From positions 2,272,001-2,336,000 of the forward strand of contig CAWGMQ010000010.1 in NCBI GenBank assembly GCA_963823665.1: a stretch of DNA of 64,000 nucleotides, in the 5' to 3' direction. A program made the position numbers and the translations under genes. Positions 22,268 through 48,945 of this stretch are shown here, piece after piece. The notes under the pieces are model-generated. The model saw only the letters and a list, made by a program, of their open reading frames with translations. It ran no database searches and was not told where the DNA came from. The stretch's first letter is position 1; each line of letters begins with the position of its first letter. Source of the stretch: an uncultured Planctomycetota bacterium. Lineage in GTDB: Bacteria; Planctomycetota; Planctomycetia; Isosphaerales; Isosphaeraceae.

Positions 22268-22975
22268 GGCGGCCGGAATGCGCGGGGCTCGTTTTGAACA
22301 CTGCATGGCCAGGTCGGATTGCGCTGGCGGCAGCCGAGCCTCGAAGTTCGTGACCGCCTTTCCGTGCCTGTTGAACAGGGCAGTTTCAATCTGCACCGCC
22401 AGGACCGCGCGACTCCAACCATGTTCGACCGTCTTCGCGGCATACCAAAGCCGCTGGGCTCGGTCCTTCACTTTCTGAATCAAGATCACATTATGCCCCC
22501 ACGGAAGACCGACAACTTCGGCGGGAGGCTTTTCACTCTCTAATTGTCGCACAGCCTGTGCGACTTTTGGCAAGCCCTTGGTTTGTCGCACAGCCTGTGC
22601 GACTTTTCGATCGTCTTCCAATTGTCGCACAGCTTGTGCGACTTTTTCCGCCAGCCTATACGCCAGGTAAAATGCCCGCATCCGGAAGACGTTGCTCCGG
22701 GAGAAACCGGTGACGCCCGGGAACGCCTTTCTTAAGTCGTCCGCGAGGCGTTCCAGAACGTTTTGCCCCCAACCTGCTTGCTCTTGCCGCTCACAGATCA
22801 AGCGCCCGATGTCCCAGTAAAGTTGAATCACCTCTCGGTTGGCCGCGAGGATTGCCTTCGTCTGCGCTCGCTGAATGCGATTCTTGAGCGAGTCCAGAAA
22901 CGCAGCGTAGCCGGCGGGCCGGCCGGCGGTCGCTCGTTTGATCCTCGTCGTCGTCGTCTTCTTCTTTCGGGCCAT
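22248..22975 (-). pseudogene. DUF1016/YhcG family protein, N-terminal domain only (nuclease domain lost)
   Basis: YAAFLDSLKNRIQRAQ..N.EVIQLYWDIG...WG..VLERLADDL...GFSRSNVFRMRAFY...LPWGHN...WY...HGWSR...TNFEARLPPAQSDLAMQ. Similarity stops where the family continues with xKDPY; restoring one G gives QVFK and a stop at 22248. Confidence 0.85.
22544..22646. repeat. Three 25-bp palindromic direct repeats (period 39 bp) in frame inside the DUF1016 gene
   Basis: TTGTCGCACAGC(C/T)TGTGCGACTTTT at 22544, 22583 and 22622, separated by unique 14-bp spacers. Each encodes KVAQAVRQ. Confidence 0.95.
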
Positions 22976-23096
22976 CAGCCTGACTCCACCGGAATCGTCG
23001 TAATGTAGGCGAAAAAAAAACGCTCTCGACGATGGTGTCGTCTTTCGGCGCGCTCCGACGCGCACGCTGTTACGCGACAACACGATCCCGGTCGCC

Positions 23097-23125
23097 TTGA
23101 CCCCACGCCCTTCTTCGATTACGAT
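23097..23125 (+). promoter_or_regulatory. Sigma70-type promoter of ispG
   Basis: TTGACC-N17-TACGAT, about 70 nt upstream of the ispG ATG. Confidence 0.65.
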
Positions 23126-23196
23126 GGGTGCATGTGTTCGGCGCAAGCTGTACGCGCGCAATTGTTTGTTGCATCACGACTTCAGGACGCAAATCA

Positions 23197-24366
23197 ATGG
23201 CCTACGCGACGACCGTCGAGCGCCACAAGACCCGTGAAGTGGGCCTTGGAGGGCAGATTGTCGGGGGTGACAATCCCGTCTCGGTGCAGTCGATGACCAC
23301 CACCAACACCTTCGACGTTGCCCAGACGCTCGCTCAGATTCACCGGCTCGAAGAGGTTGGGTGCGAGATCGTGCGCGTGACCGTGCCCAAGAAGGAAGAC
23401 GTTGAAGCCGTCAAGTTGATTCGTGACCAGATCAGCATCCCCTTGATTGCCGATATCCATTATGATTACCGCATGGCGCTGCAATGCCTGGACGCGGTGA
23501 CTCCCTCCGGAAAGCACGCCGTCGACAAGATCCGGATCAACCCCGGCAATATCGGCGGCGAAGAGCGATTCATGGAAATCGTGCGCAAGGCGCGTGATAA
23601 AGGCATCCCGATGCGTGTCGGGGTAAATTCGGGGAGCCTTGAGAAAGACCTGATCGACAAGTACGGGTATCCTTGCCCCGAAGCGATGGTCGAGAGCGCG
23701 CTGCGGTACATCGAGATGGCCGAGCGGCTCGGCTACAAGCTCATGATCATCAGCCTGAAGGCCAGCCATGTGCCCACTGCCGTCGCTTGCTACACGCAGT
23801 ACGCAGCGCAGAGCGACTACCCCACGCACGTAGGCATCACCGAGGCCGGCTCCCGTGAGTATGGCACGCTCAAGAGCGCGGCCGGCATCGGGGCGGTGCT
23901 CCTGCGCGGTATCGGCGATACGATTCGCGTTTCCCTCCTGGGTGACCCCGTGCCCGAGATTGCGGCTGGGTTTGACATCTTGCGCGCCTGCGACCGGCGG
24001 GTGACCAAGCCCGAGGTCGTCGCTTGCCCCACCTGCGGGCGGCTTGACATCGACCTCGAGCGCATCGTGGCCGAAGTCGAAGACAAGATGAAGGACATGA
24101 AGAACCCGCTGCGCATCAGCATCCTGGGCTGCCTGGTCAACGGCTTCGGCGAAGCCAAGGAGGCCGATCTGGGCATCGCCGCAGGCGCCGGCAAGGGCAT
24201 CATTTTCAAGCGCGGTGTGCCGATTCGCCACGTCAAGGAAGCCGACATGGTGCAGGCCCTGCTTGAGGAAGTTGAGCGGTTTGACGAAGAGACTCGTCCG
24301 CTCGATTCGTACATCGAGAAGGAAAAGCAGAAGCAGCAGAAGCTGGCCTTGCCGGTGCTGAACTGA
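23197..24366 (+). CDS. ispG: (E)-4-hydroxy-3-methylbut-2-enyl-diphosphate synthase
   Basis: VSVQSMT, PLIADIHY, KIRINPGNIG, RVGVNSGSL, HVGITEAG, GIGDTIRVSL, and Fe-S ligands CPTCGR and GCLVNGFGE. Confidence 0.97.
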   Translation: MAYATTVERHKTREVGLGGQIVGGDNPVSVQSMTTTNTFDVAQTLAQIHRLEEVGCEIVRVTVPKKEDVEAVKLIRDQISIPLIADIHYDYRMALQCLDAVTPSGKHAVDKIRINPGNIGGEERFMEIVRKARDKGIPMRVGVNSGSLEKDLIDKYGYPCPEAMVESALRYIEMAERLGYKLMIISLKASHVPTAVACYTQYAAQSDYPTHVGITEAGSREYGTLKSAAGIGAVLLRGIGDTIRVSLLGDPVPEIAAGFDILRACDRRVTKPEVVACPTCGRLDIDLERIVAEVEDKMKDMKNPLRISILGCLVNGFGEAKEADLGIAAGAGKGIIFKRGVPIRHVKEADMVQALLEEVERFDEETRPLDSYIEKEKQKQQKLALPVLN

Positions 24367-24375
24367 GGCGATTGA

Positions 24376-25845
24376 TCAGCCCTGCTTGAGCCCGATTGAG
24401 ACGCATTTGGTTTCCAGGTAGGCATCGAGCCCTTCGATGCCCAGCTCGCGGCCCATGCCTGATTCCTTCATGCCGCCGAAGGGGCATTGCGGCGTGGCGG
24501 GGACCGGGTCGTTGATGCCGATGATGCCCGCTTCGAGGCCTTCGGCCATGCGAGTGGCGACCGTCAGGTCATTGGTGAAGACATACGCGGCCAGCCCGTA
24601 CGGCGTATTGTTGGCGGCGGCAATTACGTCGTCGATTTTCGAGAAGTCGATGAGCGGCATGACGGGTGCGAAGGGCTCTTCGGTCATGACCTGCATGCCA
24701 TTCGTGACCTCACGCAGCACGGTCGGCTCGAACCAGAAGCCTTTTGAAAAGCGGGTCGAGCGGGCACCGCCGGTCAAGACCTTGGCACCCTTGCCGCGGG
24801 CATCGTCCACGAGCGCCGCGGTCTTTTCAAGTGCCTTGGCCTCGAACATCGGGCCGACCTGCACGCCCGGCTCCAGTCCGTTGCCGATGTTGAGCTTCTT
24901 CGTCAGCTCGACGGCGGCCTCGGTGAAGCCCTTGGCGATCTTCTCGTGCAGGTAGAACCTCGACGGCGAGATGCACACCTGGCCGTTATTGCGGAACTTG
25001 CCCAGTACGGCTGCCTGTGCGACCTGCTCGATGTCGGCGTCCGGAAAAACGATCAGCGGTGCGTGCCCGCCCAGTTCGAGGCTCAGCCGCTTGACCTGCG
25101 CGGCCGATCGCTTGATCAGTTCCTTGCCGACCTCGGTCGACCCCGTGAAGCTGATCTTGCGCACGGCCGGGCTCTCGAAGAAGACGTCGGCAAGCGCGCG
25201 CGAGGGCCCAAGCACCAGGTTCGCCACGCCCGGCGGCGCGCCGGCATCGGCAAGGCATGCGAACATCTGGATCAAGGTCAGCGGAGTCTGGTCCGCCGGC
25301 CGGCTCACGACCGTGCAGCCCGCTGCCATCGCCGCCGCGATCTTCCGGCTGGGCAGCGCGGCCGGGAAATTCCACGGGGTGATCGTGCACACGACGCCGA
25401 CGGGATGCTTGATCGCGTAATAGCGCTTGGCGATGTTGGCCGGCGGAATGATCCTCCCATACGTGCGCTTGCCCTCCTCGGCAAACCACTCGAACGTATC
25501 GGCCGCGTGCAGCACCTCGGTCTTGGCCTCGGCCAGCGGCTTGCCCTGCTCCATCGTCAGTGTTCGACCGATCGTCTCGACGCGGTCGCGCATCAACTCG
25601 GCCGTTTTCTTCAAGACCTTACCGCGGTCATACGCCGACAAGGCGCGCCAGGCAGGAAACGCCCGGCTCGCCGCATCGATCGCGCGCCGGGCTTCGTCAG
25701 CGGATCCATAAGCCACCTCCGCGACCACCGACTCATCCGCCGGATTGATCACAGCCAGCGTCTTGCCCGTAAGCGCGTCGCACCACGCACCCTCGATGTA
25801 CATCTGCGTCGGAATCTTCTCTGCAACTGCGGTCGACATGGGCAT
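24376..25845 (-). CDS. gabD: NAD(P)-dependent succinate-semialdehyde dehydrogenase family aldehyde dehydrogenase
   Basis: ITPWNFP, ISFTGSTEVG, LELGGHAP, KFRNNGQVC, EEPFAP and PFGGMKESGMGRE. Confidence 0.85.
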   Translation of the reverse strand: MPMSTAVAEKIPTQMYIEGAWCDALTGKTLAVINPADESVVAEVAYGSADEARRAIDAASRAFPAWRALSAYDRGKVLKKTAELMRDRVETIGRTLTMEQGKPLAEAKTEVLHAADTFEWFAEEGKRTYGRIIPPANIAKRYYAIKHPVGVVCTITPWNFPAALPSRKIAAAMAAGCTVVSRPADQTPLTLIQMFACLADAGAPPGVANLVLGPSRALADVFFESPAVRKISFTGSTEVGKELIKRSAAQVKRLSLELGGHAPLIVFPDADIEQVAQAAVLGKFRNNGQVCISPSRFYLHEKIAKGFTEAAVELTKKLNIGNGLEPGVQVGPMFEAKALEKTAALVDDARGKGAKVLTGGARSTRFSKGFWFEPTVLREVTNGMQVMTEEPFAPVMPLIDFSKIDDVIAAANNTPYGLAAYVFTNDLTVATRMAEGLEAGIIGINDPVPATPQCPFGGMKESGMGRELGIEGLDAYLETKCVSIGLKQG

Positions 25846-26152
25846 CTCGCTCCCCTCGTGGCTCAACCTTGCTGTGATACGAATGACGCGGCCGGATCTC
25901 CTCGGACTACCAGAGGCCCGGCTTCTTGCATCGTAAAGGCATGATCAAGTGCCAGGATAGCGGCCGTGTGAACCACATTCAATGACGGGCCTCAGCGGAG
26001 AGGCTGTGCCTCCCCACCTACGAGTCTTTCCCAAATCGCCCATTCTCAAACGATAACTCGCTAAACCCGGAGCAACCGGCTCAACTCTCCCGATCGTTCC
26101 AGCCGATATCTAAGTACAAGGCATATCACCGGGCGCGAGCGGTATAGCAAGC

Positions 26153-26821
26153 ATGGATGTAGCGTCCCTTTCTTTAGCCTGTGAGTGGAGCATGATCGCA
26201 TTCACGTGCCAGGTTCAACGGAATCCTGGAGCTCCGTCAGTTGCTCGCCGCAGGTCAGGCTTTCAGCCTGACGTTCGGCCTTCAAGAAGGCACCAGATCA
26301 CTCGGCTGGCTGGGATTGCGCTCTTGGTCGTGTCGTGTCAACTCGGGGCCTCGCATACAGCTTCGGCCTCACCGATCAAGCACTCGCATCCTCTCTCGGA
26401 AACAGCACGTCTCGACGCGGAGCTTGGTCATTCCTGGGCCGCTTATTTGATGGCGGGGCCGAGCGTGTGGACCAAGGTTATCCATCCAGAAGTGACTCCT
26501 GACCTTCGCACGGCGATCTGGCAGGCGCTCGGGAGCACGGACGCGGCGTCGAACCCGATGGTGGAATTCCTGCTCTGGAAACAGAGCCTCGACCCGGCCC
26601 GATTCGCCCGATATCACCCCCACGTTGCGCCGATTCTCAACCGGATTTCGACGGCGAGCCTGGGAAGTCAGACGACCGCGCCCTCGACATCGACGAGCAC
26701 CAGCACGACCCCGATCATACAGCCCCAGACACTGACGCCAGCCGTTCCCGAGCCCGGCCCTTGGCTGCTGGCCCTGGGGATGACCGGATGGGGCCTCTGG
26801 TGGCGCAGGCGGCCGCGGTGA
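26153..26821 (+). CDS. PEP-CTERM sorting domain protein
   Basis: Hydrophobic signal-like segment, Ser/Thr-rich linker, and C-terminal VPEP plus TM helix plus RRRPR. The start codon is uncertain. Confidence 0.8.
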   Translation: MDVASLSLACEWSMIAFTCQVQRNPGAPSVARRRSGFQPDVRPSRRHQITRLAGIALLVVSCQLGASHTASASPIKHSHPLSETARLDAELGHSWAAYLMAGPSVWTKVIHPEVTPDLRTAIWQALGSTDAASNPMVEFLLWKQSLDPARFARYHPHVAPILNRISTASLGSQTTAPSTSTSTSTTPIIQPQTLTPAVPEPGPWLLALGMTGWGLWWRRRPR

Positions 26822-26950
26822 GTGACGAAACAGCGGGGCGATGGTAAATTCGAGCGGCAAGCTTACACGTGAACCGCCCGACACACGCCCTTGTCCGGTT
26901 GTTGGTGGAGAGATTCGAGGCTTCGGGCCAGGCCGAGCAACACGGAACGG

Positions 26951-28541
26951 ATGATGTCAGACAAACCGCGATATTTCATCACGACGGCGATCGACTACCC
27001 CAACAGCCGGCCGCACATCGGCACGGCGTTCGAGAAGATCGGGGCCGACGTGCAAGCCCGCTTCCGCCGCATGGAGGGCTTCGACGTCCACTTCTTGATG
27101 GGGAACGACGAGAACACGATCAAGGTGCCCCAGCGCGCCCGCGACCTGGGCGTGAGCCCCCAGGAATACGTGGATGACATGGCGCGGCAGTTCCAGGACG
27201 TCTGGCGCGCGCTCGACATCTCGTACGACGAATTCATCCAGACGAGCGAGCCGCGGCACCATACCGGCTGCCAGAAGTTCATCCAGGCCGTCTTCGATGC
27301 GGGCGACATCTACAAAGGCGTGTATCAAGGCCACTACTGCAACGGCTGCGAGACCTTCAAGACCGAGAAGGAAGTGGAAGAAGGCAACGGGAGGTGCCCG
27401 AATCACCCGAACACTGCGCTCGTCTGGCTCGAAGAGAACAACTACTTCTTCCGCCTCTCGGCCTATCGCGACAAGCTGCTCGCGCACTATGCGGCCCATC
27501 CCGAGTTCATTCAGCCCGAAAGCCGGCGCAACGAGGTGGTGAACCTGGTCGAGACCGAGCTCAGGGATATTGCCATCACCCGCAAAGGGTTCTCCTGGGG
27601 CATCAAGGTGCCGTTCGACCCCGAGCAGACGATCTACGTCTGGTTCGACGCCTTGCTCAACTACATCACCGCGATCGGCTACGGGACCGACGAAGAGCGA
27701 TTCAGGAAGATCTGGCCGGCGAGCGTGCACGTCATCGGCAAGGACATCACTCGGTTCCACTGCGCTTTATGGCCGGCCATGCTAATGTCGGCCGGAGTGC
27801 CGCTGCCTGAGCGCGTGTTCGGCCACGGCTTCGTCTATCGCAAGAATGAAGAAACCGGCGAGGTGCAGAAGCTTTCGCAAGACGCTGGGAAACGTCGTCG
27901 AGCCCATGGAGCTCATCGACAAGTTCTCCGTCGAGGGCTTTCGGTACTATTTCATGAGCCAGTGCCCCTTCGGCGGCGACGGCGAGTTTTCGTTCGAGCG
28001 CTTTGCGGAGACGTACAACAGCGGTCTGGCCAATAACCTGGGGAACCTTTACAGCCGCATCCTGACGATGTGCATCAAGTATTTCGACGGCCGGTTCGAG
28101 AATGCCGCGGCCGTCGATGTGACTCAGTGGCGGCGTGGTGTCGATATGGCTGACCTGGTCTCGTCGCTCCGAATCGCGATCGGCTCGTTCGACTACAGCT
28201 CGTCATTGCAGCGGATCTGGCGCGACGTGATTGACGTGGCCAACCGATACATCCAGGAGACGGAGCCGTTCAAGCTGGCGAAGACCGATCTGGAAGCCTG
28301 CCGCGCCGTGCTGGTGAACCTCGCCGAGTGGCTGCGGGTAGCCGCGATCTTGATCAAGCCTTTTCTCCCGCGCACGGCCGAGACGTTTTACCGGGCGTTC
28401 AATTTCGAAGAGATTCGGGCGTGGGATCAGGTCAGCTATACGGATGCGGCGGCGCCGCAACTACCGGGTCTGCTCAATGTCACAGCTCCGATAAGCGGCG
28501 GCAAGCCGGCGCCGCTGTTTCCGAAGATTGAAGCGCGGTGA
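26951..28541 (+). CDS. metG: Methionine--tRNA ligase, short form; one frameshift near 27878
   Basis: FITTAIDYPNSRPHIGT (HIGH-like), G.DE, CNGC...CPNH knuckle, YVWFDALLNY, IGKDITRFH, KLS[+1]KTLGN (KMSKS-like) and LANNLGNL. Confidence 0.93.
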
Positions 28542-28552
28542 GTTTTCTTAAT

Positions 28553-28577
28553 GTAGCAGGCACACGCCGTGTGCCGT
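28553..28577 (+). repeat. GTAG-type REP-like element
   Basis: GTAG-CA-GGCACAC-GCC-GTGTGCC: a GTAG tetranucleotide followed by a perfect 7-bp hairpin, just after the metG stop. Confidence 0.55.
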
Positions 28578-28607
28578 AACTGGATTACATCGCGCGGACT
28601 GCGACTA

Positions 28608-28670
28608 CTACCAAAGTCGCACTTCGCGCCTGAAAAGCGGACGCACTTTCGCGGAGCGAAAGGCGACTTT
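28608..28670. repeat. REP-like interspersed hairpin, copy B (inverted relative to 7381-7440)
   Basis: Reverse complement reads GTCGCCTTTCGCTCCGCGAAAGTGC...GCGACTTTGGTAG. The first 25 bp and last 13 bp are identical to copy A, and it also lies between convergent genes. Confidence 0.75.
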
Positions 28671-29034
28671 AGTTTGGGGCAAACTTGTCCGCGAGTTCCA
28701 GCGTGCCCCACACGAAGAGCCCGACTACGAATCCGGAAACCGCACCGACAAACGTTGCGCTGAGCAAAACCGCCAAGCTCACGCCGTAGTTGGTGGTTGC
28801 GGCAATATACGCCGTCCAACCGTAATACACCACGATTCCCCCCGCGATGCCGCCCAGAATTCCTCCTCCATCCCGCCACCGGTGAATGAGAGCCCCAATG
28901 AGCTGCCCCGGGACGAGAGCAAAAAGGAGTTTCACCGTCAGATCCAATATGCGACAGAGCGCGAAGAACAGCGCGCACCCGGCAACCACGACCATTATCT
29001 GCCCGAGAGTAAAACGCACATTCGGTCGGTTCAT
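28669..29034 (-). CDS. Small membrane protein with planctomycete-type RFTLxxxMxxVA N-terminus
   Basis: 121 aa with about four hydrophobic segments; begins VRFTLGQIMVVVAGCALFFAL. Confidence 0.7.
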   Translation of the reverse strand: MNRPNVRFTLGQIMVVVAGCALFFALCRILDLTVKLLFALVPGQLIGALIHRWRDGGGILGGIAGGIVVYYGWTAYIAATTNYGVSLAVLLSATFVGAVSGFVVGLFVWGTLELADKFAPN

Positions 29035-29073
29035 GGGTGCTGCTCGGAGTGCGGCCGGAAGCGTACGCGATCC

Positions 29074-30519
29074 TCATTCCACGTTGACGCTGTCGAGACC
29101 TGTCGTCGACAGAACGTGGCGCCGGGATTCGACGGCAGGCTCGATCGGCAGCGTCACCATCATCTCCGTGCCGCCGGCCTTTCCACCGTGTGCTTCGATC
29201 GTACCGCCGTGGGCGCCTGCAATCCACTTGCAGATGCTGAGACCCAATCCGCAGCCAAGCGAGGCTCGGGCGGGGTCGACTTGATAGAACCGCTCGAACA
29301 CGTGCGGCAGGTGCTCCGGAGGAATCCCGATGCCGGTGTCCGTGACGCGGAGCACCGCGGCTGCGTCAGTCACCTCCACTCGCACGGTCACGGAGCCGCC
29401 TGCATCTGTGAAGCGGATCGCATTGTCAAGGAGGTTGGTGACCAGTTGCCGGAGCCGTGACGGGTCTCCCTCGATCACCACGGGCTGCGAGCTCTCGGCA
29501 ACGAGACGAACTCCCTTGTCGTCCGCGACCGGCTCGAACATCTCCACCACGTCGCGCACCAGCACAGCCAGATCGACTGATTCTCGTGTGATGGCAATTT
29601 CACCCGCATCGGACCGTGCCAGTAGCAACAGGCCATTCACCAGAGCGGTCAATCGCTCGCACTGGCTACTGAGCGTGCAGAGGGTTTCCTGATACTCGTC
29701 GGGCGCTCGGGGCTTTTGCAAGGCAAGCTCGATCGCCGCTTGCATCGCTCCCAGCGGGCTGCGCAGCTCGTGCGAGGCATCCGCGGTGAAGCGACTAGCC
29801 TGTGTATGAAAGGCCGCCAGGCGGTCGAGCAAGCCGTTGATCGTCGCGGCAAGCTCGTCGAGCTCGTCGCCGGATCCCGTTCGCGGCAAGCGCTCGGAGA
29901 GATTCTTGGCATCCAGTCGCCGGGCCGAGCGGATGCTCTGGGCGATGGGACGCAATGCTTGCCGCGACAGCAAGACGCCCCCCGCGGCGGCAAGGATGAG
30001 CACGGCAAGGGCCCCTCCGGCGATCTGCCGGTCGAATGCTGCGATGGTCTCTTCGGTCTCGGCCAGAGACATCCCCAGCTCGAGCGAAAGCCCCGCGCTC
30101 GCCGAGGTAGCCGTGAGCACGCGGAATTTACTGGAAACGCCCACAAGCTCGATCGTACGGGGCGAACGCGGCGGCGCCGGCCTCGCGGCCAACAGCTCCG
30201 CTGCATTCGTGAGCGGCGAGTGGGAGACTCTCGATCGCTCGCGGAGGACGACAATCAGCCCCTCGGGCTCGTACGCCATGACCTCGCGGCCGATCTCGGC
30301 ATCTAGCTCTTCCCGGCCGCCGGGCCGTTCATCCCTGACGACCGCGAGCAGCTCGGCCGCCTTGCGCTCGAGAAAGGCGTCGTTGCGGGATTCCAGCACG
30401 CGAACCAGCCCAACATGCACACAGAGAAAGCCGGCCGCCATCGTCCCGGCCAGAACCAGGCCCCACCACAGCATGAGCCTGGTTCGCAGCCCAAGCGGCC
30501 TACGTCTCGCGGATGACAT
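29074..30519 (-). CDS. Sensor histidine kinase with HAMP domain (CusS/heavy-metal-sensor-like)
   Basis: Two TM helices, HAMP (GDELDELAATIN), H-box FTADASHELRSPL, N-box NLLDNAIRF, G1 DTGIGI, and FERFYQVD...GLGLSI. Confidence 0.92.
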   Translation of the reverse strand: MSSARRRPLGLRTRLMLWWGLVLAGTMAAGFLCVHVGLVRVLESRNDAFLERKAAELLAVVRDERPGGREELDAEIGREVMAYEPEGLIVVLRERSRVSHSPLTNAAELLAARPAPPRSPRTIELVGVSSKFRVLTATSASAGLSLELGMSLAETEETIAAFDRQIAGGALAVLILAAAGGVLLSRQALRPIAQSIRSARRLDAKNLSERLPRTGSGDELDELAATINGLLDRLAAFHTQASRFTADASHELRSPLGAMQAAIELALQKPRAPDEYQETLCTLSSQCERLTALVNGLLLLARSDAGEIAITRESVDLAVLVRDVVEMFEPVADDKGVRLVAESSQPVVIEGDPSRLRQLVTNLLDNAIRFTDAGGSVTVRVEVTDAAAVLRVTDTGIGIPPEHLPHVFERFYQVDPARASLGCGLGLSICKWIAGAHGGTIEAHGGKAGGTEMMVTLPIEPAVESRRHVLSTTGLDSVNVE

Positions 30520-39565: not shown

Positions 39566-40695
39566 TCACGCCGGCTTCGACCAGCGCCGCCATGCCGAAC
39601 GGGCCGAGCGGGCCAGCGAAAGTGCCCTGGGAGGAGCTGATTTCTTGAGCATCCTGACCAGTGGCCGCAACCGCTCGGCCGGGCCGTGAAGCTCGAACCA
39701 GCGCTGGTAAGAGTGACCGCTCGTCGCAAACGGGTCCGGAAAGTGGATCGCCAGATCGTCGCGGCTCCGATAGACCAGCCGGTGCGCATCCGTGATTCGC
39801 CGGCCGCTCTGGAATGAGTTAAAGACGCAGTCGATGGCACCCAGCGTTTCCTGGCCAAGCTCCCGGCACCGCGCGATGTACCAGTCGCGCAAATCGTACA
39901 GTACGGGGCTCTGCGACCCGTAGCGATCGAGCATGCGCGCTGCGCCCCGGAGTCAAAGCCCGAGAAGTGGTAGAACACAAGGGGCCGGTCATTGATCCGG
40001 ATCTCGTAAGGAGCCGTGCCTGTGGCCCGCCGATGAGTGAGGTTCCATGTCGCGACGTTAAATTCGGGCTCGCGCACGATCGCGATGTCGTCGAAATACG
40101 CTGGCGCCAGGTCGACCCAGCGCTGGTCGGTGAAGAGGCCGCTCTTGACATCGTCGTAGCAGAACTGTCTGAGCCGGTCGGCCCACCAGTCGATGAACCT
40201 GCGCCCTTGGGAGCTAACCCGAACCGCCAGGAACCCCAGGTTGTAGATTCCGTGCCGCAGGGCGCAGAGCTCGTTGTCAAGGATCGCCTGGTGAAGAGTC
40301 TCGGGCTCGGCCAGGTGCGGCGTGAGCAGGATGCTGCTCGAGTCGAGCTTTCGCTCGAGCGCATCGAGCCGGCCCAGCACCACGATGTCGGGATCGAAGT
40401 AATAGATGCGCTCGGCACCGAAACGGTCAGCGATGTGCTGGAACGCGGTTCCCTTCACGGCCGTGCACAGCTCCACCAGCCGGTGCTTGAAAATCCAGGA
40501 CGGCAGGTTGTCGATCGGCAGGTCCTTGATGTTGATGATGCTGTCGAAGGCGCCGGTTGTGATGCTCGGGCACGGCGGCAGCTCGTCGCAGAGCACGACG
40601 TGAAAGACCGCCTCGGGGTGAAGACGCTTCACGGAAATAGCCAGCGCCGCCGCCTTGGGCAGGTAGTTGGCGGTGATGCTAGTGAAAATGTGCAT
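39566..40695 (-). CDS. GT-A fold glycosyltransferase (GT8-like), copy 1; frameshift near 39940
   Basis: MHIFTSITANYLPKA, ELCTAVKG, YYFDPDI (DxD), LTPH, YNLGF, FTDQRW and FYHFSG. Paralogue of 56303-57460. Confidence 0.8.
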
Positions 40696-42211
40696 GTCGC
40701 CTCCGTGAGACGCCCAGCGGGCTTGGACGTTGCGAGTGGAGCTCGTGAGCGCAAGCGCCGCGGGTGCGGCGCTCGTCGTCCTCTGCAAATTCGTAATAGG
40801 ATGTGAGCGTATCCGGATAATACGCCGGTGTCGGCGCCGGAGGCGGACTGCCGGCCCCGGAGAGCCAGTGCGCGGCAGCCAGGAGCTCGTCGTTGATCTG
40901 GCCGGGAGAAAGCTCGATCTGGAGCGGCCGGCCCCAGCCCCAGTTTCGCACTCGGAGAGCCTGGGCCCCCAGATCGAAGCAGATGACGAACAGTCCCGCG
41001 GCCATTGCGATCGAAAGAGTGTACATGTACGATTCCGGGCACTCGGACGGGAGGAAGGCCAGGTGGGGGCGCCGGGAGGCAAGGAGATCGAAAACGTCGT
41101 GCTCGCGGTAGCCTCCGGTGATGTGCACGTTGCCCAGGCGCAGAAGCGCGGCGTCACGGTCGCTGGAGCCGATCAGGTGAAACTCGAGCGGCAGCCCGCG
41201 CAGGCGGGCGTCGGAAGCGCACGCGAGGAGGCGCTCCGAGCCTTTGACCGCGACCAGCGTGCCGATCAAGGCCACTCGAATGGCTTCGTCGCCGCGAAGG
41301 GGTCGCGCGACCTCTTGGACGATCGTGAGTGATTCCTCGTGCGGCCGGAGCGTCAATTCGAGGCCGGGGAAATAGCGGCCGAGCCGGCTCGCGACATCCG
41401 TGCTGGGCACAAACACCCGCCGGGCCCCCGCGAGCCGCCGTGCGTAACGCTCACGCCACGAGGCGATCGACTCGGTAACGCGGCGGCCGCAATCGTCGCC
41501 AAGCTGAGCGAGGCACCGGTTGCACCCCGCTTCATCGGGCTCGCCGCAATAGCGGCCGCCCGAGCTGATCAAATTGATGCGCGGGCAGATCGTGTGGTAG
41601 TCGTGAATCGTCCAGTCGTACGAGACGCCGCGCGCGGCCAGGGCGTCGAAGAGAGATTCGGGCAGCCCCAGTGCATGGTGCACGTGCGCATGCACGGGCG
41701 CGATCGCCCCCAGCATCTCCGCGATCGATTCGCGATCGACATTCGACTCGCGGCACCAGAGCGTTTCGCGGCGATCGTCGCGTTCTTCCCAGAGGATCCG
41801 CCCGGCCTGACTGGGGCGCACCACGATCGGCCGCACGCCTTCGTTTTTGAGCGCGTACTCGAGATCGCCGATGTGCCGTTCGGTGCCGCCGCCGCACCGG
41901 TGGTTGATCAAGAGGAAGACCGGTCGATTGTCCGCGACCCAGGGGCGGGTATGGAAGTGCCGCAGGCGCGAGTGCTCGGCCAGCCGAGCTGCGATTTGCG
42001 ACAGCTTTCTGCGCAAGAGCGAACGCGCTCCCTGTCGCTCGAGGGCGGTGAACAAACGCGGGAGCCAGTGCCGCACATTCCGCATCTGGCTCGGAACGCT
42101 TTGAATTCGCATCCTTTGTCCCCGCCGTCCTTGGTGCGGGACCGGAACCACGAGAAGCGGCGATCCATCCCGCCGCGCAACCTGCACTGGGAGCGGGAGT
42201 TCTAACCTCAA
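40679..42211 (-). CDS. GT-B (GT4-like) glycosyltransferase, copy 1
   Basis: HRCGGGTERH, HAHVHH, TIHDYHTICPR, Cys cluster YCGEP...CNRC, VKGSE and PSECPESYMYTLS. The true start may be nearer 42112. Confidence 0.82.
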   Translation of the reverse strand: MRLELPLPVQVARRDGSPLLVVPVPHQGRRGQRMRIQSVPSQMRNVRHWLPRLFTALERQGARSLLRRKLSQIAARLAEHSRLRHFHTRPWVADNRPVFLLINHRCGGGTERHIGDLEYALKNEGVRPIVVRPSQAGRILWEERDDRRETLWCRESNVDRESIAEMLGAIAPVHAHVHHALGLPESLFDALAARGVSYDWTIHDYHTICPRINLISSGGRYCGEPDEAGCNRCLAQLGDDCGRRVTESIASWRERYARRLAGARRVFVPSTDVASRLGRYFPGLELTLRPHEESLTIVQEVARPLRGDEAIRVALIGTLVAVKGSERLLACASDARLRGLPLEFHLIGSSDRDAALLRLGNVHITGGYREHDVFDLLASRRPHLAFLPSECPESYMYTLSIAMAAGLFVICFDLGAQALRVRNWGWGRPLQIELSPGQINDELLAAAHWLSGAGSPPPAPTPAYYPDTLTSYYEFAEDDERRTRGACAHELHSQRPSPLGVSRRRHAHFH

Positions 42212-42372
42212 GCGATGGAAGTGTCAATTGTGAATTCGTGCGTGTGTTGCTGCAGACGGCACGAGACTGCACTTGCCGCCTCCGCGTGGACGAGGTTTAA
42301 TCTGCGGTTCCGTCGCTGGATGGATCCGGCGAGTGAACCGGAGCGGTTAACCGGCGTTCAGGATGAAGGCCG

Positions 42373-43800
42373 ATGAGCCTGGCTGAGCAAGTTCGCCCGC
42401 TGCTCGCAACGATCGCCCCGCCATCGAGTGTGCGGAGGCGAGTGCTCCGGTTCGGCTATCGGAGGATCCGTTCACTGTCCGAGCTTCTCTGCCGGCGAGG
42501 CTTGACGCGCGGAGCCGAGGCAATCCCAGAGCATCCGCAGGCGACGGCAGCAACGATCCGCCCGATCGGCGCCGATCGGATCGGGCCGCGCCAGGTCCTC
42601 GTGATCGACCACCGGCTTCCAACTCCCGATCGCGATAGTGGGTCTGTTCGCATGATGGAGCTCATCCGCGCGATCGGGCTCCGTGGTCATCAGGTCACGT
42701 TCATTCCCAACAATCAGGCCGTGTTTTCGCCTTATCGCGAAGACCTGGAGCGCGCTGGAATCGAGGTCGTCTATCCGCCGCGCTACCGATCAACCGAGGA
42801 ATTCCTGAGCAAATACGGCCACGAATTCCGCCTGGCGATCATCGCCCGCGCCGACGTGGCCGATCGGCACATGGACACGGTGCGACGACACGCGCCCCAG
42901 GCCAGAATCGTGTTCGACACCGTGGACCTCTGCTTCTTGCGCGAAGAGCGTCAGGCCCAGATCGCAGGGGACGAAAGCCTCAAGGCGGCTGCCTCTCTCC
43001 GCAAGGAACAGGAGCTTCGGCTGGCCAGGAGTGCGGATCTCACCCTGGTCGTGAGCGCGATCGAGAAGGCTGTGCTCGAGGCCGAATGCGGGCCGGAGGC
43101 CGACGTCCGTATCCTTTCGAATATCCATCCCGTCGAGACAAGAACGCCACCGGGCTACGACGAGCGACGCGATATTCTGTTCATCGGCGGGTTTGATCAT
43201 CAGCCCAACGTCGACGCGGTGCTCTTCTTCGCGCACGAGATCTTCCCGCTCGTGCGGGAGCGCATTCCGGGCGCCCGTTTTCAGGTCATCGGCCCTTATC
43301 CCAGGCCGGAAATCAGCCGGCTTGCCTCGGACAGCACCCAGATCCTGGGGTTCGTTCCGGACGTGAAACCGCATTTCGACAGGGCCCGCCTCTCGGTCGC
43401 GCCGCTGCGATTCGGGGCCGGCGTCAAAGGCAAGGTGAACCAGAGCATGTCGCTGGGCGTGCCCACCGTAGTCACCCCCGTCGCGGCCGAGGGGATGTAT
43501 CTGACGCATGAAGTCGACGCCATGATCGCCGACGGAGCCGAGCACTTTGCCGATGCCGTCGTGCGGCTCTGGTCGTCACCGGACCTCTGGCGGAAGATCT
43601 CGGAGAACGGCATCCGCAGCCTGCAACGACACTTCTCTGTTCTTGCCGCGACCGGGCCCATTGAAGAGCTTCTAGCATGGGCCGGCCTGTCGGCAACCGT
43701 CAAGTTCCAGGAGGAGCGCGGCCATGAGCGAGCGAGGTCTCGATCGCGGACTGAGGGCGGATCCAGTAGCGGATCGAGCACGGTCAGAATCGCTTCGTAG
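42373..43800 (+). CDS. GT4-like glycosyltransferase
   Basis: LVIDHRLPTPDRDSGS.RM, FDTVDL, FIGGFDHQPNVDAV and APLRFGAGVKGKV.QSM..GVP.V.T..AAEGM. Confidence 0.87.
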   Translation: MSLAEQVRPLLATIAPPSSVRRRVLRFGYRRIRSLSELLCRRGLTRGAEAIPEHPQATAATIRPIGADRIGPRQVLVIDHRLPTPDRDSGSVRMMELIRAIGLRGHQVTFIPNNQAVFSPYREDLERAGIEVVYPPRYRSTEEFLSKYGHEFRLAIIARADVADRHMDTVRRHAPQARIVFDTVDLCFLREERQAQIAGDESLKAAASLRKEQELRLARSADLTLVVSAIEKAVLEAECGPEADVRILSNIHPVETRTPPGYDERRDILFIGGFDHQPNVDAVLFFAHEIFPLVRERIPGARFQVIGPYPRPEISRLASDSTQILGFVPDVKPHFDRARLSVAPLRFGAGVKGKVNQSMSLGVPTVVTPVAAEGMYLTHEVDAMIADGAEHFADAVVRLWSSPDLWRKISENGIRSLQRHFSVLAATGPIEELLAWAGLSATVKFQEERGHERARSRSRTEGGSSSGSSTVRIAS

Positions 43801-45063
43801 CAAACTGATACGCCGGCCGTCAGATATCTTCCGCAAGCCAGCCGCGCGCCCGCGCCAAGGGCGAAGCCCGCCGACATCGTCCTTATCGCCGGCTTCCTGG
43901 TTGCGATCAGCCTGCCGCTCCTGGGCTTGCTTTTCTCGCTCGACCGGGGATTCGTTCTCGACGAGAAGCGAACGCTCACGCCACGGCCCCGGCTCAAGGC
44001 GCACATGAAGGTGCTGGCCGCGTTCCCTGCCCGGTTCGAAGCGTTCTTCAATGACCAATTTGGATTCCGCAAGCGGCTGATCTACGGGCTCAATGTGACG
44101 AAGGTCGTGGCGCTTGGCGTCTCGCCCCATCCCAAAGTGATCTTCGGATCCAAGGGGTGGCTCTACTACGGCGACAAGGATGTCCCGTACTACCGAGCCG
44201 TGGAGCCTCTGACTGAGGCGCAGCTCGAAGCCTGGCAGAAACGGCTCGAACAGCGGCAATCGTGGCTCGCGGACCGCGGCATCCCCTACCTGTTTGTCAT
44301 CACACCGCTCAAGAGCACGGTCTATCCCGAGTATATGCCGCGCACGTATAACCGGATCGGAACGACGTCGCGCCTCGACCAGCTCATGGCGCACTTGAGG
44401 GCGCACTCCGGCCTCAATGTCATCGATCTGCGCGCGGCGATCCTGGACGAGAAAACGCGCAATCAGGTGTTTTACCGCACCGACACGCACTGGAACACCC
44501 GGGGCTCGTACGTCGGCTACACCCACATTCTGAAGGCGCTCTCGCGCTGGTTTCCTCAGCTCGAGGCCATTCCGATCTCGGCATTCGAGGAGTTCCACTA
44601 TTTTTCCGAGCCGGGGCGAGACCTGCCGTCGCTGCTGGGGATGGAACCCTACTTCTGGGATCGCTACGTCGACATGAAACGGACGAGGCCGGGTCTTGCG
44701 CATGAGATCACGCCACCGCCGCCGGCGAGCAAGCTGGTGGATCGCGGCCCCGACATCTTGTACGAGCACCCCGATGCCCGATTGCCGAGGGCCGTCATGT
44801 TCCGCGACTCATACGCGGGCTGGCTCATTCCGCTGCTCTCGGAGAATTTCAGCCACATTCTCTACACGTGGCAGTACACCTTCGACAAAGAGATCGTCGA
44901 GCGAGAGAACCCCGACGTGGTGATCCAGGAACTGGTCGAGCGGGTGCTGATGGAAGACACGCCGCCGGCGCCGTACGCGCAGAGCGCGGGGTCTGGAGAC
45001 CCGCGCCCAACAACCCGGCATATGATGGTGGGTTTCACCCACCCTACGGAGTCGAAAAGCTAG
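43724..45063 (+). CDS. AlgJ/AlgX-like SGNH polysaccharide O-acetyltransferase (probable 5' frameshift)
   Basis: TM anchor, EKRTL, FNDQFGFR, VIFGSKGWLY, P.KSTVYPEY, YRTDTHWN, RDSY and PDVVIQELVER. A strong AGGAGG RBS precedes ATG 43724, but the main frame is that of ORF 43927-45063. Confidence 0.8.
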
Positions 45064-46013
45064 ACTTCGACCCACTCGAGGTGTGCCACCTTGGGCAGCA
45101 GCTCTTGGCGTGCCCAGGTCACGAACGGCCGGTCCACGCACGACTCGATACTCACCCCCGGCAAGACATCTTCCCCGATCCCGTCGGCGACGAATACGGC
45201 GTTGAACCCGAGCCGCTGCACACCGGCCAGCCGATAGCCTTTTTTCTTGCCGAGCTTCACGAAAGCCGGCAGGCTGGCGCCTGAGTAGATCAGAAAGCGG
45301 TCGATCGGCGGGGTCTTGAACGTATCGGAGTACGGGACCGTGACGGCGCGATCCGGCCCCCAGATGCACTGCACTTCGGCGATCACCACGCGGGGCCGAA
45401 TCACGTCGATCGCTTCCCAGACCCAGTAGTCCACGCCGTCCAGATCGAGAGACAGCAGGTCGACCTGCCCTTCAAAGCCATTCATTCTGATCAAATCGTT
45501 GATGTTCTCGCGTGTGATCCACGCATGGACAAACCTGGGCGGGAGCGGACTGGTATCGGGAAGCCGGGCGTAATAGGCACGCCCTCGTTCAACGAGACGA
45601 ATGTCGCCGTCAAAGAGCAATCCGTTCCAGCCGTGGTTCACGATCAGATTTGCCGTGTTGCACTCGATTCCATCTCCGGCGCAGATCTCGACGCAGCGGC
45701 GCCCGCCCATGCCGAGCAGACTGAAAACGTAGAGCAGGATGCCATCCTCGCCGTTCTGGCTGAAGGCGCGGAACTCGGTGTCTTCAAACGAGGGCAGGGG
45801 GGCTTTTCCGCGGGCGAGCTCGCGGTACTGGTTGGCGAGGATCAACTGCGACACCTTGTCGGCGGTACCGACCGTTCCGCCGGCAGACCGCTCGAGCAAG
45901 GATCGCAGGCCGGCCAGGTCGCGCTTGAACGGGCCCATGCCGAGCGTGTTGAGCACCGAGAGACAGCTTTCCGCGTCAGGCTTCTCATGAGTCGTCCTTT
46001 TCTGGAAAGTCAA
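45060..46013 (-). CDS. FkbM-like/methyltransferase-fold protein
   Basis: FSQNGEDGIL, VEICAGDG.ECNT, DLLSLDLDGVDYWVW, PRVVIAE and GASL.A...L...KGY.L.....NAVFV. Confidence 0.7.
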   Translation of the reverse strand: MTFQKRTTHEKPDAESCLSVLNTLGMGPFKRDLAGLRSLLERSAGGTVGTADKVSQLILANQYRELARGKAPLPSFEDTEFRAFSQNGEDGILLYVFSLLGMGGRRCVEICAGDGIECNTANLIVNHGWNGLLFDGDIRLVERGRAYYARLPDTSPLPPRFVHAWITRENINDLIRMNGFEGQVDLLSLDLDGVDYWVWEAIDVIRPRVVIAEVQCIWGPDRAVTVPYSDTFKTPPIDRFLIYSGASLPAFVKLGKKKGYRLAGVQRLGFNAVFVADGIGEDVLPGVSIESCVDRPFVTWARQELLPKVAHLEWVEV

Positions 46014-46043
46014 CCGGGTGCGCAGGCCGGCGCCCGGCGCTCA

Positions 46044-47822
46044 TCAAATGCGTTTGCCTTTGATCGACGGACGAAGCCGTCTCAGCTCGCGCCCGAGCCG
46101 CCGCTCTACTGCGGTATGGAGCGCATACCACGCCTGACGGACGCCGGCTGCCGGCCCCTCCGGTACCGCGTGCGCCGCATCGACGCGGACCGGCCCGCCT
46201 GCCGGCTGCGACCAGCTCAGAATCGCGTCGCGGAGCATTCGCCTCGCCTGAAGCGAACGTTCCGAGGGATTGAGCACAACCGAGCGGTACACGCGAATCA
46301 CGGCATCGGCGATCGCACCGCGCGGCGCCAGCACGATTTCCGCCGGCGAGATTCCCAGCTCGGAGGCGATCCGGTCGCGAGAGTCTTGCGAGTGAGCCAG
46401 GATACCTTGAGCGCACATCAGAGCGAGTGAGCCTGTGGTGCCCTCGGCATCGTGAATTGCACCTAGGCGGGCTGTTGCCGTCGCTTCCCGGGAAGTCCGG
46501 TCGTCAACGGTCAGAACAACGTGCGCCCCAGAGCCGTAGGGGATCGCCAGCTCCTCGCGAGTGATGAACCCCGCCGGTTTGTGAATGACCGCGAAATCGT
46601 CGCGCCAGGATTCCGGTGTGATGTGCGGCGCGCAGAATCCTGCGGCTTGCGCCTTTTCGTTGACCAGCAGCCACAGATCGACCTCGGGGGCCTGCGCGAG
46701 CGATTGTGCCAGTTTGATCGCGTCCGTCCGCGCGGGCTCATTGGTAGTGGCGACGTGCCGGATGTCGAGGGCAACGCGCAGCTTGCCGGTGCGCAGGAAT
46801 TCGATGGCATGCCGGGGCAGTTGCCCGTCCAGGCTATGCTCGAAGCCGGCGAGTTGATGCGCGCGGTACGGATGTCGTTCCTCGAGGATCGCTCGATCTC
46901 GCGCGGGCAGAAAGCCACCATCGTCGTCCGCATTCAATCCGGCCGGCAAATGCTCGACGTACGCGTGATTGGATCGCTTGCCGAGAAAGCCGACCGTCTG
47001 GGCGCGCATGACCCAGTCTTCGATGGCGGATTGAAGGGTCGAGAACCGGGGATCCAGCAAACCGATCGCGTCGATGATCGGCCCGCGCAGATAAACGCAC
47101 GGCCCGTGTACGCCAGGTGCGCTCGTCGCCCGCGGGAGGCAGGAGAAAGCTTTGCTCGCCAGGCACTCGTCGATTCCGGCGTGGCGATTGTCGTGTGTTT
47201 GGATCGAGCGGTCGAGCACGCTCAGAATCGACAGCGGCCACGCGAAGGCAACGCGCTCTTCGGAGTGAGCGACGGCCGAAAGCTCGGTGAGCCAGCCGGG
47301 CGTGACCATCGTGCCGGGCGCGAGGAGAAGACAATCCCCTCCGCGCTCGCGCAGGCCGAGGTTCCAGGCTTGCGTATCAACGGGATGATGCGAGTGCCGC
47401 ACAATGTGGACGGCCGGGCTGCTCTGAGCGAGGCTCTCCAGCTCAGGCTCCTGGGCAAGCGCCGTGACCAGGATCAAGCGGCGCAAAACCGGGTCGCCTG
47501 GCTCGAGAACTCGTCGCAGGGAGCGGATCGTGGTCGGCGTCACCCAGTCCACGGCGACGATGACATCGGCGGTCCTTGCCGGCGGCATTCCCATCTCCAG
47601 AGGGGCCAAGCTCGGAATCGTTGCTCGGTCGGGACGCATCGATCGACTGAGAGGGTATACTCCCATCGCGCACTGACGGTCAAGATGAATTGGATGGGTC
47701 GGGCCGCTCGATTGCTCGAGGTGCAACGTCGGGAAGAAGCACTTTCGCCGAGTAAAGATGCCGGCGGCTGCGTCGAGAAGATTTACTTCGGGTGGGTCTT
47801 TCTGAGGCAGTTCTGAAACCAA
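46044..47822 (-). CDS. Degenerate GT2 plus truncated GT4 fusion; paralogue of 60543-62288
   Basis: GT2-like N-half (DVIV, WNLGL, VTPGWLTEL, CVYLR..IIDAIGLLD, EDWVMRA..GF) followed by GKLRVALD and a C-terminus shared with the 60543 gene, but no EGFGLP domain. Start is probably downstream of 47822. Confidence 0.65.
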   Translation of the reverse strand: MVSELPQKDPPEVNLLDAAAGIFTRRKCFFPTLHLEQSSGPTHPIHLDRQCAMGVYPLSRSMRPDRATIPSLAPLEMGMPPARTADVIVAVDWVTPTTIRSLRRVLEPGDPVLRRLILVTALAQEPELESLAQSSPAVHIVRHSHHPVDTQAWNLGLRERGGDCLLLAPGTMVTPGWLTELSAVAHSEERVAFAWPLSILSVLDRSIQTHDNRHAGIDECLASKAFSCLPRATSAPGVHGPCVYLRGPIIDAIGLLDPRFSTLQSAIEDWVMRAQTVGFLGKRSNHAYVEHLPAGLNADDDGGFLPARDRAILEERHPYRAHQLAGFEHSLDGQLPRHAIEFLRTGKLRVALDIRHVATTNEPARTDAIKLAQSLAQAPEVDLWLLVNEKAQAAGFCAPHITPESWRDDFAVIHKPAGFITREELAIPYGSGAHVVLTVDDRTSREATATARLGAIHDAEGTTGSLALMCAQGILAHSQDSRDRIASELGISPAEIVLAPRGAIADAVIRVYRSVVLNPSERSLQARRMLRDAILSWSQPAGGPVRVDAAHAVPEGPAAGVRQAWYALHTAVERRLGRELRRLRPSIKGKRI

Positions 47823-47826
47823 TCCG

Positions 47827-48945
47827 TCACGTCCGCGAGCGCGATCCCGAACCGGTCTCGCTTGACTGTTCCGTTTCGAGCCGTGCCCTGGCCGCGATCA
47901 TCGTTTGGTGCAGCTTTTTCTGAAGCAGCCGTTTCGGCGGAAGGTCCGTCAGGTAGGACGCCACCCGGATGCCGCTTTTGTCGAGTTGGAGCAGTTCAAC
48001 TCGCTCATCTCCCTTGTCGGCGCACAGAATCAGCCCGATTGGAGCACCCTCGCCACGTTCCATCTCGTGCTTTTCCAACCAGCGGAGGTACAATTCCATC
48101 TGCCCCTTGTCGCCGGCCTTGAAGCGCTCCAATTTGAGTTCGACTGCAACCAATCGCCGGAGTTTTCGGTGGTAGAAGAGTAGATCGAGATAGAAGTCTT
48201 CGCCGTCGATCACGATTCGCTTTTGTCTCGTGATGAAGCTGAAACCCGCGCCCAACTCCAGGATGAACCGCTCCATCTCCCGCAAGATCGCCGCTTCGAG
48301 GTCTTTCTCATCGTACGTATCTTTGAGGCCCAAGAACTCCAGGAAATAAGGATCGCGGAACACGAGGTCGGGCGTAAGCGTTTCTCCGCCCCGGAGCTTC
48401 GTCAATTCTTGCTTGATCAGTTCTTCGGGCTTCCTCGACAGAGCGGTTCGCTCGAAGAGCATCCCGCCGATTTTCGCTCGAAGCGCCCTGACGCCCCACC
48501 GTTCAATCCGGCACATTTCGGCGTAGAACTCTCGCTGGAGCAAATCCTTGAGTTGCAAGATCTCGATGAAGTGGCTCCAGCTCAATTGTCTCGACAGTGT
48601 CGAGACAATTTCTCCGTCCGGGAAGGATTCGGCGAATTTGATCATGCGGAACAGATTCGGTCGCGAGTAGCCGCTGCCGAATTCCACACTCAATTGTCTC
48701 GACAGCGTCGAGACAATCTGCTCGCCGTACGCGGCGCGCCGGGAATCGAGGATATCGCCTCGGATGCGCTGCCCCACCTGCCAATAGTGCATCACCAGCG
48801 CCGAGTTGACAGCCTGGAACACCCCAAAACGCGCGGAGCGTATCAGGTGGCGGAGATCCTTGATCAGCTTCGCCGGGGAGCGCACATCACGCAGCGGCAC
48901 ACGCACCATCGGCACGTTCTGGTTTTTTGCTCGTTTCCTGGCCAT
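47827..48945 (-). CDS. DUF1016/YhcG family PD-(D/E)XK nuclease domain protein
   Basis: VNSALVMHYWQVG, AAYGEQIV, YSRPNLFRM, LSWSHF, REFYAEMC, FRDPYFLEFLGL, EKDLE, ELGAGF, DLLFYHRKLRRLVAVELK, GQMELYL and PIGLILC. Confidence 0.93.
   Translation of the reverse strand: MARKRAKNQNVPMVRVPLRDVRSPAKLIKDLRHLIRSARFGVFQAVNSALVMHYWQVGQRIRGDILDSRRAAYGEQIVSTLSRQLSVEFGSGYSRPNLFRMIKFAESFPDGEIVSTLSRQLSWSHFIEILQLKDLLQREFYAEMCRIERWGVRALRAKIGGMLFERTALSRKPEELIKQELTKLRGGETLTPDLVFRDPYFLEFLGLKDTYDEKDLEAAILREMERFILELGAGFSFITRQKRIVIDGEDFYLDLLFYHRKLRRLVAVELKLERFKAGDKGQMELYLRWLEKHEMERGEGAPIGLILCADKGDERVELLQLDKSGIRVASYLTDLPPKRLLQKKLHQTMIAARARLETEQSSETGSGSRSRT
48581..48717. repeat. Two 29-bp palindromic direct repeats, 108 bp apart, in frame inside the DUF1016 gene
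   Basis: CTCAATTGTCTCGACAG(T/C)GTCGAGACAAT at 48581 and 48689. Positions 48584-48610 form a perfect palindrome with 13-bp arms. Each copy encodes IVSTLSRQLS. Confidence 0.95.

Follow-up and report, generated by a model that had tools for sequence, protein, structure and literature searches.

Two genes of the YhcG (DUF1016) family lie in a 64,000-nucleotide stretch of DNA (here, the window) from an uncultured Planctomycetota bacterium, and each contains repeated palindromes within its reading frame. An earlier note, made from the letters alone, drew attention to these palindromes and proposed that they act both as DNA site and as peptide. Why should a coding sequence be kept symmetrical, and why should the symmetrical sequence differ from gene to gene? 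The answer reached here is that the palindrome is very probably the binding site of the protein encoded around it, because single residues covary with single bases of the site and the protein is predicted to have a ParB-type fold. What the protein gains from carrying its own site is addressed more tentatively.

Palindromes in two YhcG genes

The five copies described in the earlier note are present and lie far above chance expectation. In gene 2, site 1 (48584..48610, centre 48597) is a perfect 27-bp palindrome centred on the first base of a codon six codons before a conserved Trp, the canonical place in the YhcG family. Site 2 (48692..48718, centre 48705), a second cognate copy 108 bp upstream, lies inside the helix before the recognition helix. 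For the 19-bp cores of these sites (48588-48606 and 48696-48714) the chance mean is 0.01 matches. Gene 1 has three copies at a spacing of 39 bp (22542..22568, 22581..22607 and 22620..22646, with centres at 22555, 22594 and 22633 and cores at 22546-22564, 22585-22603 and 22624-22642), the chance mean here being 0.03. The arms of the two genes differ at five of six positions and are still self-complementary, as had been claimed.

The two genes were also said to share a register. All five copies are indeed centred on the first base of a codon, but the codon differs between the genes, lying 6 and 42 codons before the Trp in gene 2 and 18, 31 and 44 in gene 1, and in two copies (22624-22642 and 48696-48714) the innermost pair is mismatched. 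The same register is found in 275 of 284 family palindromes, 189 being centred six codons before the Trp. It is the register that constrains the protein encoded by a palindrome least (PMC6649704; papers are cited by identifier for the accessible part of their text), so the meaning attached to it is not needed.

A search of the 16.5-Mb genome by sequence patterns, allowing up to two mismatches, found neither palindrome outside its own gene, and so the further copies for which the earlier note had suggested a scan did not appear; there are no flanking copies around gene 1 or gene 2. A dispersed mobile repeat of the repetitive extragenic palindromic (REP), Rickettsia palindromic element (RPE) or miniature inverted-repeat transposable element (MITE) type is rejected in view of this confinement. 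The genome has nine DUF1016_N matches, with palindromes that differ among them.

Both window genes are on the minus strand and match DUF1016_N (PF17761) above the cut-off (E = 2e-41 and 4e-44, respectively). The coupling of DUF1016 to a PD-(D/E)XK nuclease, taken for granted in the earlier note, holds only for gene 2 (47827..48945, 372 residues), an intact YhcG protein predicted to join a ParB-type DNA-binding domain to the nuclease. Its C-terminal YhcG_C domain is matched at E = 1e-45, and the catalytic D and ELK motifs, in a predicted NucS/EndoMS-like fold, are encoded at 48130..48195 (minus strand). Gene 1 (22301..22975, likely ATG at 22975) is a DUF1016 N-terminal domain that breaks off at about 22301 and lacks the nuclease half, its frame continuing through unrelated sequence to 22040. 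It has no YhcG_C match, and the six such matches in the genome are all distant from it. The sequence past the break occurs once in the genome and is therefore not a repeated insertion sequence (IS).

Selection for symmetry at the DNA level

Loci were gathered from Planctomycetota, viral contigs and GTDB genomes and mapped to one hidden Markov model profile; 336 frames covered the DUF1016 domain, of which 307 were distinct. Between a conserved Asn and the Trp, 249 of the 307 contain a centre with at least eight of nine pairs, compared with two of 305 equal windows downstream. With the centre fixed at the canonical codon rather than chosen, at least eight of nine are paired in 164 of 217 short-linker genes, whereas recoding the same peptide with each gene's own codon use gives an expectation of 1.7. 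Silent positions are paired in 210 of 219 cases at position 7 and in 101 of 122, 208 of 219, 182 of 185 and 166 of 172 at four others, against expectations of 74, 30, 64, 45 and 25. Symmetry is thus selected at the DNA level, beyond anything that selection on the protein would maintain, just as the earlier note had argued. The peptide varies freely, with 141 different seven-residue sequences in 241 genes.

Across the family the site spans about 27 bp, with AT-rich ends, variable 8-bp half-sites and a purine-S-pyrimidine centre. At least 87 half-site variants occur over positions 3-9, and the arm covariation and variation in copy number that had been anticipated are both seen. The base beside the centre is a purine in all 179 fourfold codons, though it is unpaired in 56. 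Among the mismatches there are 32 G-T and 51 A-C, without a G-U bias, which points to DNA rather than RNA. Symmetry is also stricter at pairs apparently read by long hydrogen-bonding residues than at those facing small residues (p 0.002-0.02 in four of six tests), while four wrong-pair controls were not significant; neither were the mismatch-by-residue tests of Arg against other residues at position 4 and of Tyr at position 6. In a few loci (L043, L204, L130, L131, L148, L155, L027, L056 and L260) a site in the linker or outside the gene has a two-base instead of a three-base centre, implying a changed dimer geometry.

A residue-by-base code

For each base of the half-site, mutual information was calculated with all well-filled columns of the protein alignment except those of the linker. 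Position 7 covaries with the residue before the conserved Asn (z = 13.6), positions 5 and 6 with Asn+3, positions 8 and 9, more weakly, with Asn+2, position 4 with Trp+4 (z = 8.7) and position 3 with Trp+30 and Trp+1. Six or seven residues each covary with one base pair of the half-site. The top columns arose, unprompted, on helices equivalent to the DNA-contacting ones of ParB; by alignment and the numbering of PMC7383237 they would correspond to ParB 174, N178, 177, R204, the SVR motif and G201. In gene 2 the recognition helix GYSRPNLFRM (48643..48672, minus strand) would, judging by this covariation, supply the residues for positions 5-9, the WSH helix (48565..48585, minus strand; equivalent to that of ParB G201/R204) those for positions 3 and 4, and the start of the WGVR helix (48481..48501, minus strand; the SVR equivalent) those for positions 2 and 3. 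The gene 1 counterparts are the recognition helix GFSRSNVFRM (22679..22708, minus strand) and, for the putative inner-base specificity residues, the region from the WGH helix to the WSR helix (22400..22507, minus strand).

In 354 genes, G occupies position 7 in 123 of 128 cases with Arg before the Asn and in only 3 of 192 with other common residues; Arg or Lys at Trp+4 goes with C in 77 of 81, and Glu at Asn+2 with C at position 8 in 24 of 24. The chemistry is ordinary, Arg and Lys being associated with G, Glu with C, and Val, Leu and Ile with A:T. Shared ancestry was allowed for with independent pairs taken from a FastTree tree built without the linker and code columns. On these the Arg-G7 rule scored 35.5 versus 0 of 40 (p = 6e-11), and other rules 13.5 versus 0.5 of 22, 13.9 versus 0 of 18, 9.8 versus 0 of 12, 17.8 versus 0.5 of 27 and 9.1 versus 0 of 11; the rule for Arg at position 2 was not significant (4.4 versus 0 of 12, p = 0.125). 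Among 90 residue-by-position cells, no residue tied to another residue's base reached 0.05. In close pairs of proteins, Asn+3 differs in 42 of 70 with different sites and in 1 of 51 with the same site.

The code also has predictive value. With whole clusters left out, it predicts 79% of bases, where random variable columns reach 54% and the nearest outside homologue 61%, although the code columns had been chosen on the same data. In a held-out set of 74 genes fetched later, 70 of them with a palindrome, it predicts 89% of 528 bases against 80% for the nearest homologue and a further comparison figure of 59%; many of these genes are alike, and their median best identity to the training set is 72%. 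Arg goes with G at position 7 in 31 of 31 of the held-out cases and other residues in 0 of 36, while at positions 5 and 8 the nearest homologue is slightly better than the code.

The code is followed even where the site has moved. Copies displaced into inserted linkers (84 genes) show G with Arg in 29 of 29 and with other residues in 3 of 48, several non-coding copies also obey it, and in nine genes the site is in another reading frame. The earlier suggestion that the palindrome encodes a recognition helix is rejected on these grounds: the encoded peptide is a passenger. Nor did the idea that swapping a hairpin re-programmes specificity hold up, since the specificity residues are encoded 50-110 bp either side of the site. 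The covariation does, on the other hand, favour the alternative raised in the earlier note of an operator recognized by its own product.

A ParB-type domain as the probable reader

Sequence and model agree in giving the N-terminal domain a DNA-binding fold of ParB/Spo0J type. In an HHalign comparison with 28 ParB domains it scores 91.7% (E = 7.6e-7, 76 columns), and 25 of 98 family members match HTH_ParB with E no higher than 0.1 (best value 8.5e-7). The model (predicted local distance difference test score 92) has as its best structural match the ParB-parS complex 6s6h (Z = 7.1, root-mean-square deviation (rmsd) 4.5 over 103 residues), followed by Spo0J (Z = 6.9, rmsd 2.5, 89 residues), with KorB, SopB and VirB lower. 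In this alignment the palindrome-encoded peptide falls on a ParB helix that follows the recognition helix and precedes the G201/R204 (GHAR) helix and that, on our assignment, is not one of the DNA-contacting helices named for ParB/Noc in the accessible part of PMC7383237. A dimer prediction for the N-terminal domain scored 0.20 against a mark of 0.42. The nuclease domain is closest to NucS/EndoMS (Z = 10.6, rmsd 2.8, 107 residues).

No Pfam match to the N-terminal CTPase domain of ParB was obtained, and in the model a single long helix precedes the DNA-binding domain. There was no ParA-type match among the window neighbours or 120 flanking frames of 65 loci, and no KilA-N match in the window genes or family members. 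Sequence searches matched no solved structure and no NCBIfam family, and the window contains no Rfam match. The DUF1016 region of L039, L050, L054, L423 and L428 belongs in each case to a frame of 700-900 codons, which may be a fusion that adds a long N-terminal part.

Position, copies and decay of the site

In the subfamily of gene 2, sites 1 and 2 change in concert, and 37 of 47 copies at the site-2 place agree with the code of their own protein; where two gene 2-type copies are unlike each other, the code prefers one or the other. The linker palindrome is missing from 27 of 381 genes, but in 19 of these we read a site within the gene or next to it that has been relocated, has degenerated or is one base shorter. 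Several of the relocated cognate sites are no more than 160 bp from the start codon. Copies in the flanks are rare, numbering 15 in 1.6 Mb (0 in one shuffle), of which a few are actually in-gene, and they cluster close to the start and stop codons. Of 101 pairs of co-resident paralogues, one shares a site, where about 5 were expected (p about 0.03), a weak result given that the expectation comes from rounded identity-matched rates.

A Methanoregula locus (L299) has three tandem family-type sites about 90 bp before the start codon, sharing AATT ends with a 23-bp period, which hints at joining or cutting at the AT-rich ends. Site 2 of a Tautonia gene (L304) is interrupted by an IS-like element, and the third copy in one E. 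coli allele (L478) by IS1. The window genome itself offers further cases. An orphan perfect palindrome of family type (L351:1501-1527; G000:C3:1599090) stands right after the stop codon of an unrelated gene; the few codons behind it resemble the Trp motif and appear to be a gene remnant, and the codes of gene 2 and L007 fit it best. A second orphan, a near-palindrome of family type (L361:1501-1527; G000:C10:1576027), best fits paralogue L003. In the paralogue remnant L009 (G000:C7:1100431-1100625) the canonical site is joined directly to the start of the nuclease region, the outcome expected if the DNA from the site to the +165 copy, which that subfamily has, had been deleted. Outside the family, a RhuM-Fic gene (L261:1653-2669) has an in-frame palindrome of its own at L261:1872, and similar ones flank L148. 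Other families may thus share the in-frame-site design, which may be a general one of solitary mobile DNA-binding genes.

Genomic context and Escherichia coli

The family corresponds to the PADLOC candidate PDC-S02, whose models match it, and the window genes are members. The genes from which PDC-S02 was drawn sit within BREX, DISARM and type I restriction-modification (R-M) systems, the PDC candidates being untested (10.1101/2024.01.29.577857), and DUF1016 is 17-fold enriched beside invertible genes (PMC9881135). We surveyed 65 loci, scanning 120 of 149 flanking frames and using no background control. R-M, methylase or CRISPR neighbours occur at 12 of the 65, several with the gene as a single insertion within the operon, and five adjoin integrases, resolvases or transposases; others have housekeeping genes. 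Single-gene insertions are seen between hsdM and hsdS, mod and res, cas7 and cas1, and folK and tyrS. The family is found in bacteria, archaea, plasmids (441 records) and prophages, including yhcG of E. coli K-12, and in 12 of 50,697 GenBank phage records; a single-protein search of viral contigs found no relative.

In the window, gene 2 stands alone within a long polysaccharide/glycosyltransferase cluster (34493-63644), with only a mild GC dip in its region and no sigma-70-type promoter near it. Gene 1 is divergent from gcpE. Elsewhere, a tandem pair of BlaR1/M56-type peptidase genes occupies 7471-11715, and profile searches identify DUF1559 and PEP-CTERM genes, which would suggest a planctomycete.

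The yhcG gene of E. coli K-12 resembles gene 1 in having three copies at a 39-bp spacing. The code is correct at five of eight bases of the first copy, and the second and third violate the position-7 rule; an E. coli allele with Arg before the Asn does have G there. Family-type sites lie 14 bases past the stops of gltD and of yhcG in K-12 (L476:2145 and 10483), bracketing a gltF-yhcG island. A yhcG-free gltD-nanQ junction is present in 946 of 5426 E. coli genomes. The single palindrome there has the same sequence as the first in-gene copy in common yhcG alleles, and filled alleles carry a different palindrome at the same distance from the stop.

What is the site for?

We regard self-repression as, on balance, the probable purpose of the site. 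YhcG, presumably as two copies, would bind the palindrome of about 27 bp in its own gene through the ParB/Spo0J-type domain, and residue and base changing together would give rise to dozens of orthogonal specificities, the site encoding an arbitrary peptide in a tolerant helix. A gene landing alone in a foreign operon would be transcribed from whichever promoter lies upstream. An in-frame site would move with the gene and let the protein block its own transcription as a roadblock, without a promoter of its own, such negative feedback holding a potentially harmful, mobile candidate defence nuclease low. Extra or start-proximal copies could tune the strength of repression, and distinct specificities could keep co-resident paralogues independent.

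Several observations weigh against this account. The column equivalent to ParB R173 is no main determinant, positions 8-9 were predicted no better than by the majority base when clusters were left out, and the structural scores are middling, the top Foldseek rows also being ParB but at E = 0.15 or worse. The site lies 230-340 bp into the gene, unlike a classical operator, and is kept equally well whether or not there is a nuclease to restrain (22 of 25 nuclease-less against 330 of 353 intact genes). Spo0J of B. subtilis at native level leaves neighbouring genes unsilenced (PMC7333895), and repression does not explain copies at rearrangement junctions.

Possibly, although we have our doubts, occupancy of the site governs the nuclease itself. 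YhcG would then be a self-addressed nuclease with a modular code of six to seven residues, practising self-restraint until infection or transfer brought release or site-directed cutting.

An activity switch like that of BstA and aba seems unlikely. Docked on its own gene, the nuclease would be sequestered or held without activity; it would be freed as an abortive-infection or addiction effector once the site was lost, as is proposed to follow from host DNA breakdown, DNA-mimic proteins or loss of the element. BstA-aba is a precedent for such cognate protein-DNA pairs (PMC8585504), and the flexible position of the site, the PDC-S02 status with its BREX, DISARM and R-M embedding, the defence neighbours and the enrichment beside invertible genes would all suit it. 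The defence role of PDC-S02 is, however, that of a candidate, and most neighbours in our survey are not defence genes; one to three sites could bind few molecules only, and the scarcity of the gene in phage records is unlike the prophage-borne bstA.

Site-directed mobility we consider improbable. Here the nuclease would cut at or beside cognate sites, making them junctions for insertion, deletion or homing of the gene and its cargo. The palindrome at the yhcG-free junction of E. coli and the bracketed K-12 island fit such a scheme, as do the truncations, deletions and IS insertions that end in sites (L481, L009, L304, L478), the orphan site with its gene remnant (L351) and a patchy spread that includes nine matches in this genome. 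The scarcity of flanking copies, with none around the window genes, does not, and a homing nuclease would cleave its own gene; palindromes and direct repeats, moreover, draw IS elements and deletions without any nuclease, and the order of gain and loss in E. coli is ambiguous.

It is very improbable that the palindrome is an mRNA hairpin, or that the peptide is a specificity module whose covariation reflects protein-protein contact. The repeats do fold as RNA (z -3.6 to -5.6), half of the palindrome bases are non-silent, and residue-residue coupling could mimic part of the signal. The hairpin is rejected in view of the lack of G-U bias and of the fold, which in the model is that of a reader of double-stranded DNA; that fold also speaks against the peptide module, as does the adherence of displaced and non-coding copies to the code. 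Scarcely credible, finally, are selfish or mutational palindromes with no binder, their arms kept alike by template switching: conversion has been proposed for coding palindromes of hairworm mitochondria (PMC6649704) and may help arms and copies to change together here, but as a sole cause it is rejected, since it fails to make residues encoded 50-110 bp away track single base pairs or to explain the residue-dependent symmetry and the silent purine beside the centre.

Relation to known systems

The nearest relatives of the proposed arrangement are ParB-parS and Noc with its binding site (NBS). YhcG is predicted to share their DNA-binding fold, in which a few residues switch specificity, the recognition helix reads the outer bases of the palindrome and the G201/R204 helix the inner, and two later helices are involved (PMC7383237; for YhcG, as suggested by covariation). 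YhcG differs in having a C-terminal nuclease instead of a CTPase domain, half-sites that are separated by three (rarely two) bases and end AT-rich, and its many half-site variants in place of a handful. Its site also lies within its own reading frame in nearly every member. One parS of B. subtilis is located inside spo0J.

BstA, too, is a DNA-binding protein of defence type with a cognate, variant-specific element overlapping its own gene, but aba is 63 bp long with direct repeats at the start codon and no palindrome, and BstA has a KilA-N-like domain, no nuclease and a demonstrated role in defence (PMC8585504), for which YhcG is a candidate. A residue-base code is available for YhcG, and none is described for BstA in the accessible part of that paper. 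The mitochondria of Nematomorpha resemble YhcG genes in their perfect coding inverted repeats and in preferring the register with paired first codon positions; theirs, however, are long, gained and lost at many places and attributed to conversion, whereas those of YhcG are short, at fixed places and coupled to residues (PMC6649704). NucS/EndoMS, the best structural match of the nuclease, differs in its N-terminal domain, and mismatch cleavage is not implied.

The literature searched, whose coverage left out most subscription papers and preprint supplements, yielded no account of the site, of the ParB-type reader or of the code; the accessible parts of PMC4316617 and 10.1101/2024.04.30.591980 mention the YhcG family without palindrome or code. 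What is new, then, is the apparent cause of palindrome variation in YhcG/DUF1016, a residue-by-base code.

Implications

These results give a first mechanism-level handle on the YhcG family, with exact predicted sites and residues. Some 200 bp of a single gene hold both protein and site, so that each member sequenced supplies a protein together with its matching site, and the family forms a large natural data set on how ParB-fold specificity changes, a question so far studied on one ParB/Noc pair. It is also a potential source of orthogonal DNA-binding parts or programmable nucleases. For the biology of the family, the in-frame site would explain how a candidate defence gene in a foreign operon could control itself without a promoter of its own, and YhcG would offer a natural, testable code of protein-DNA recognition.

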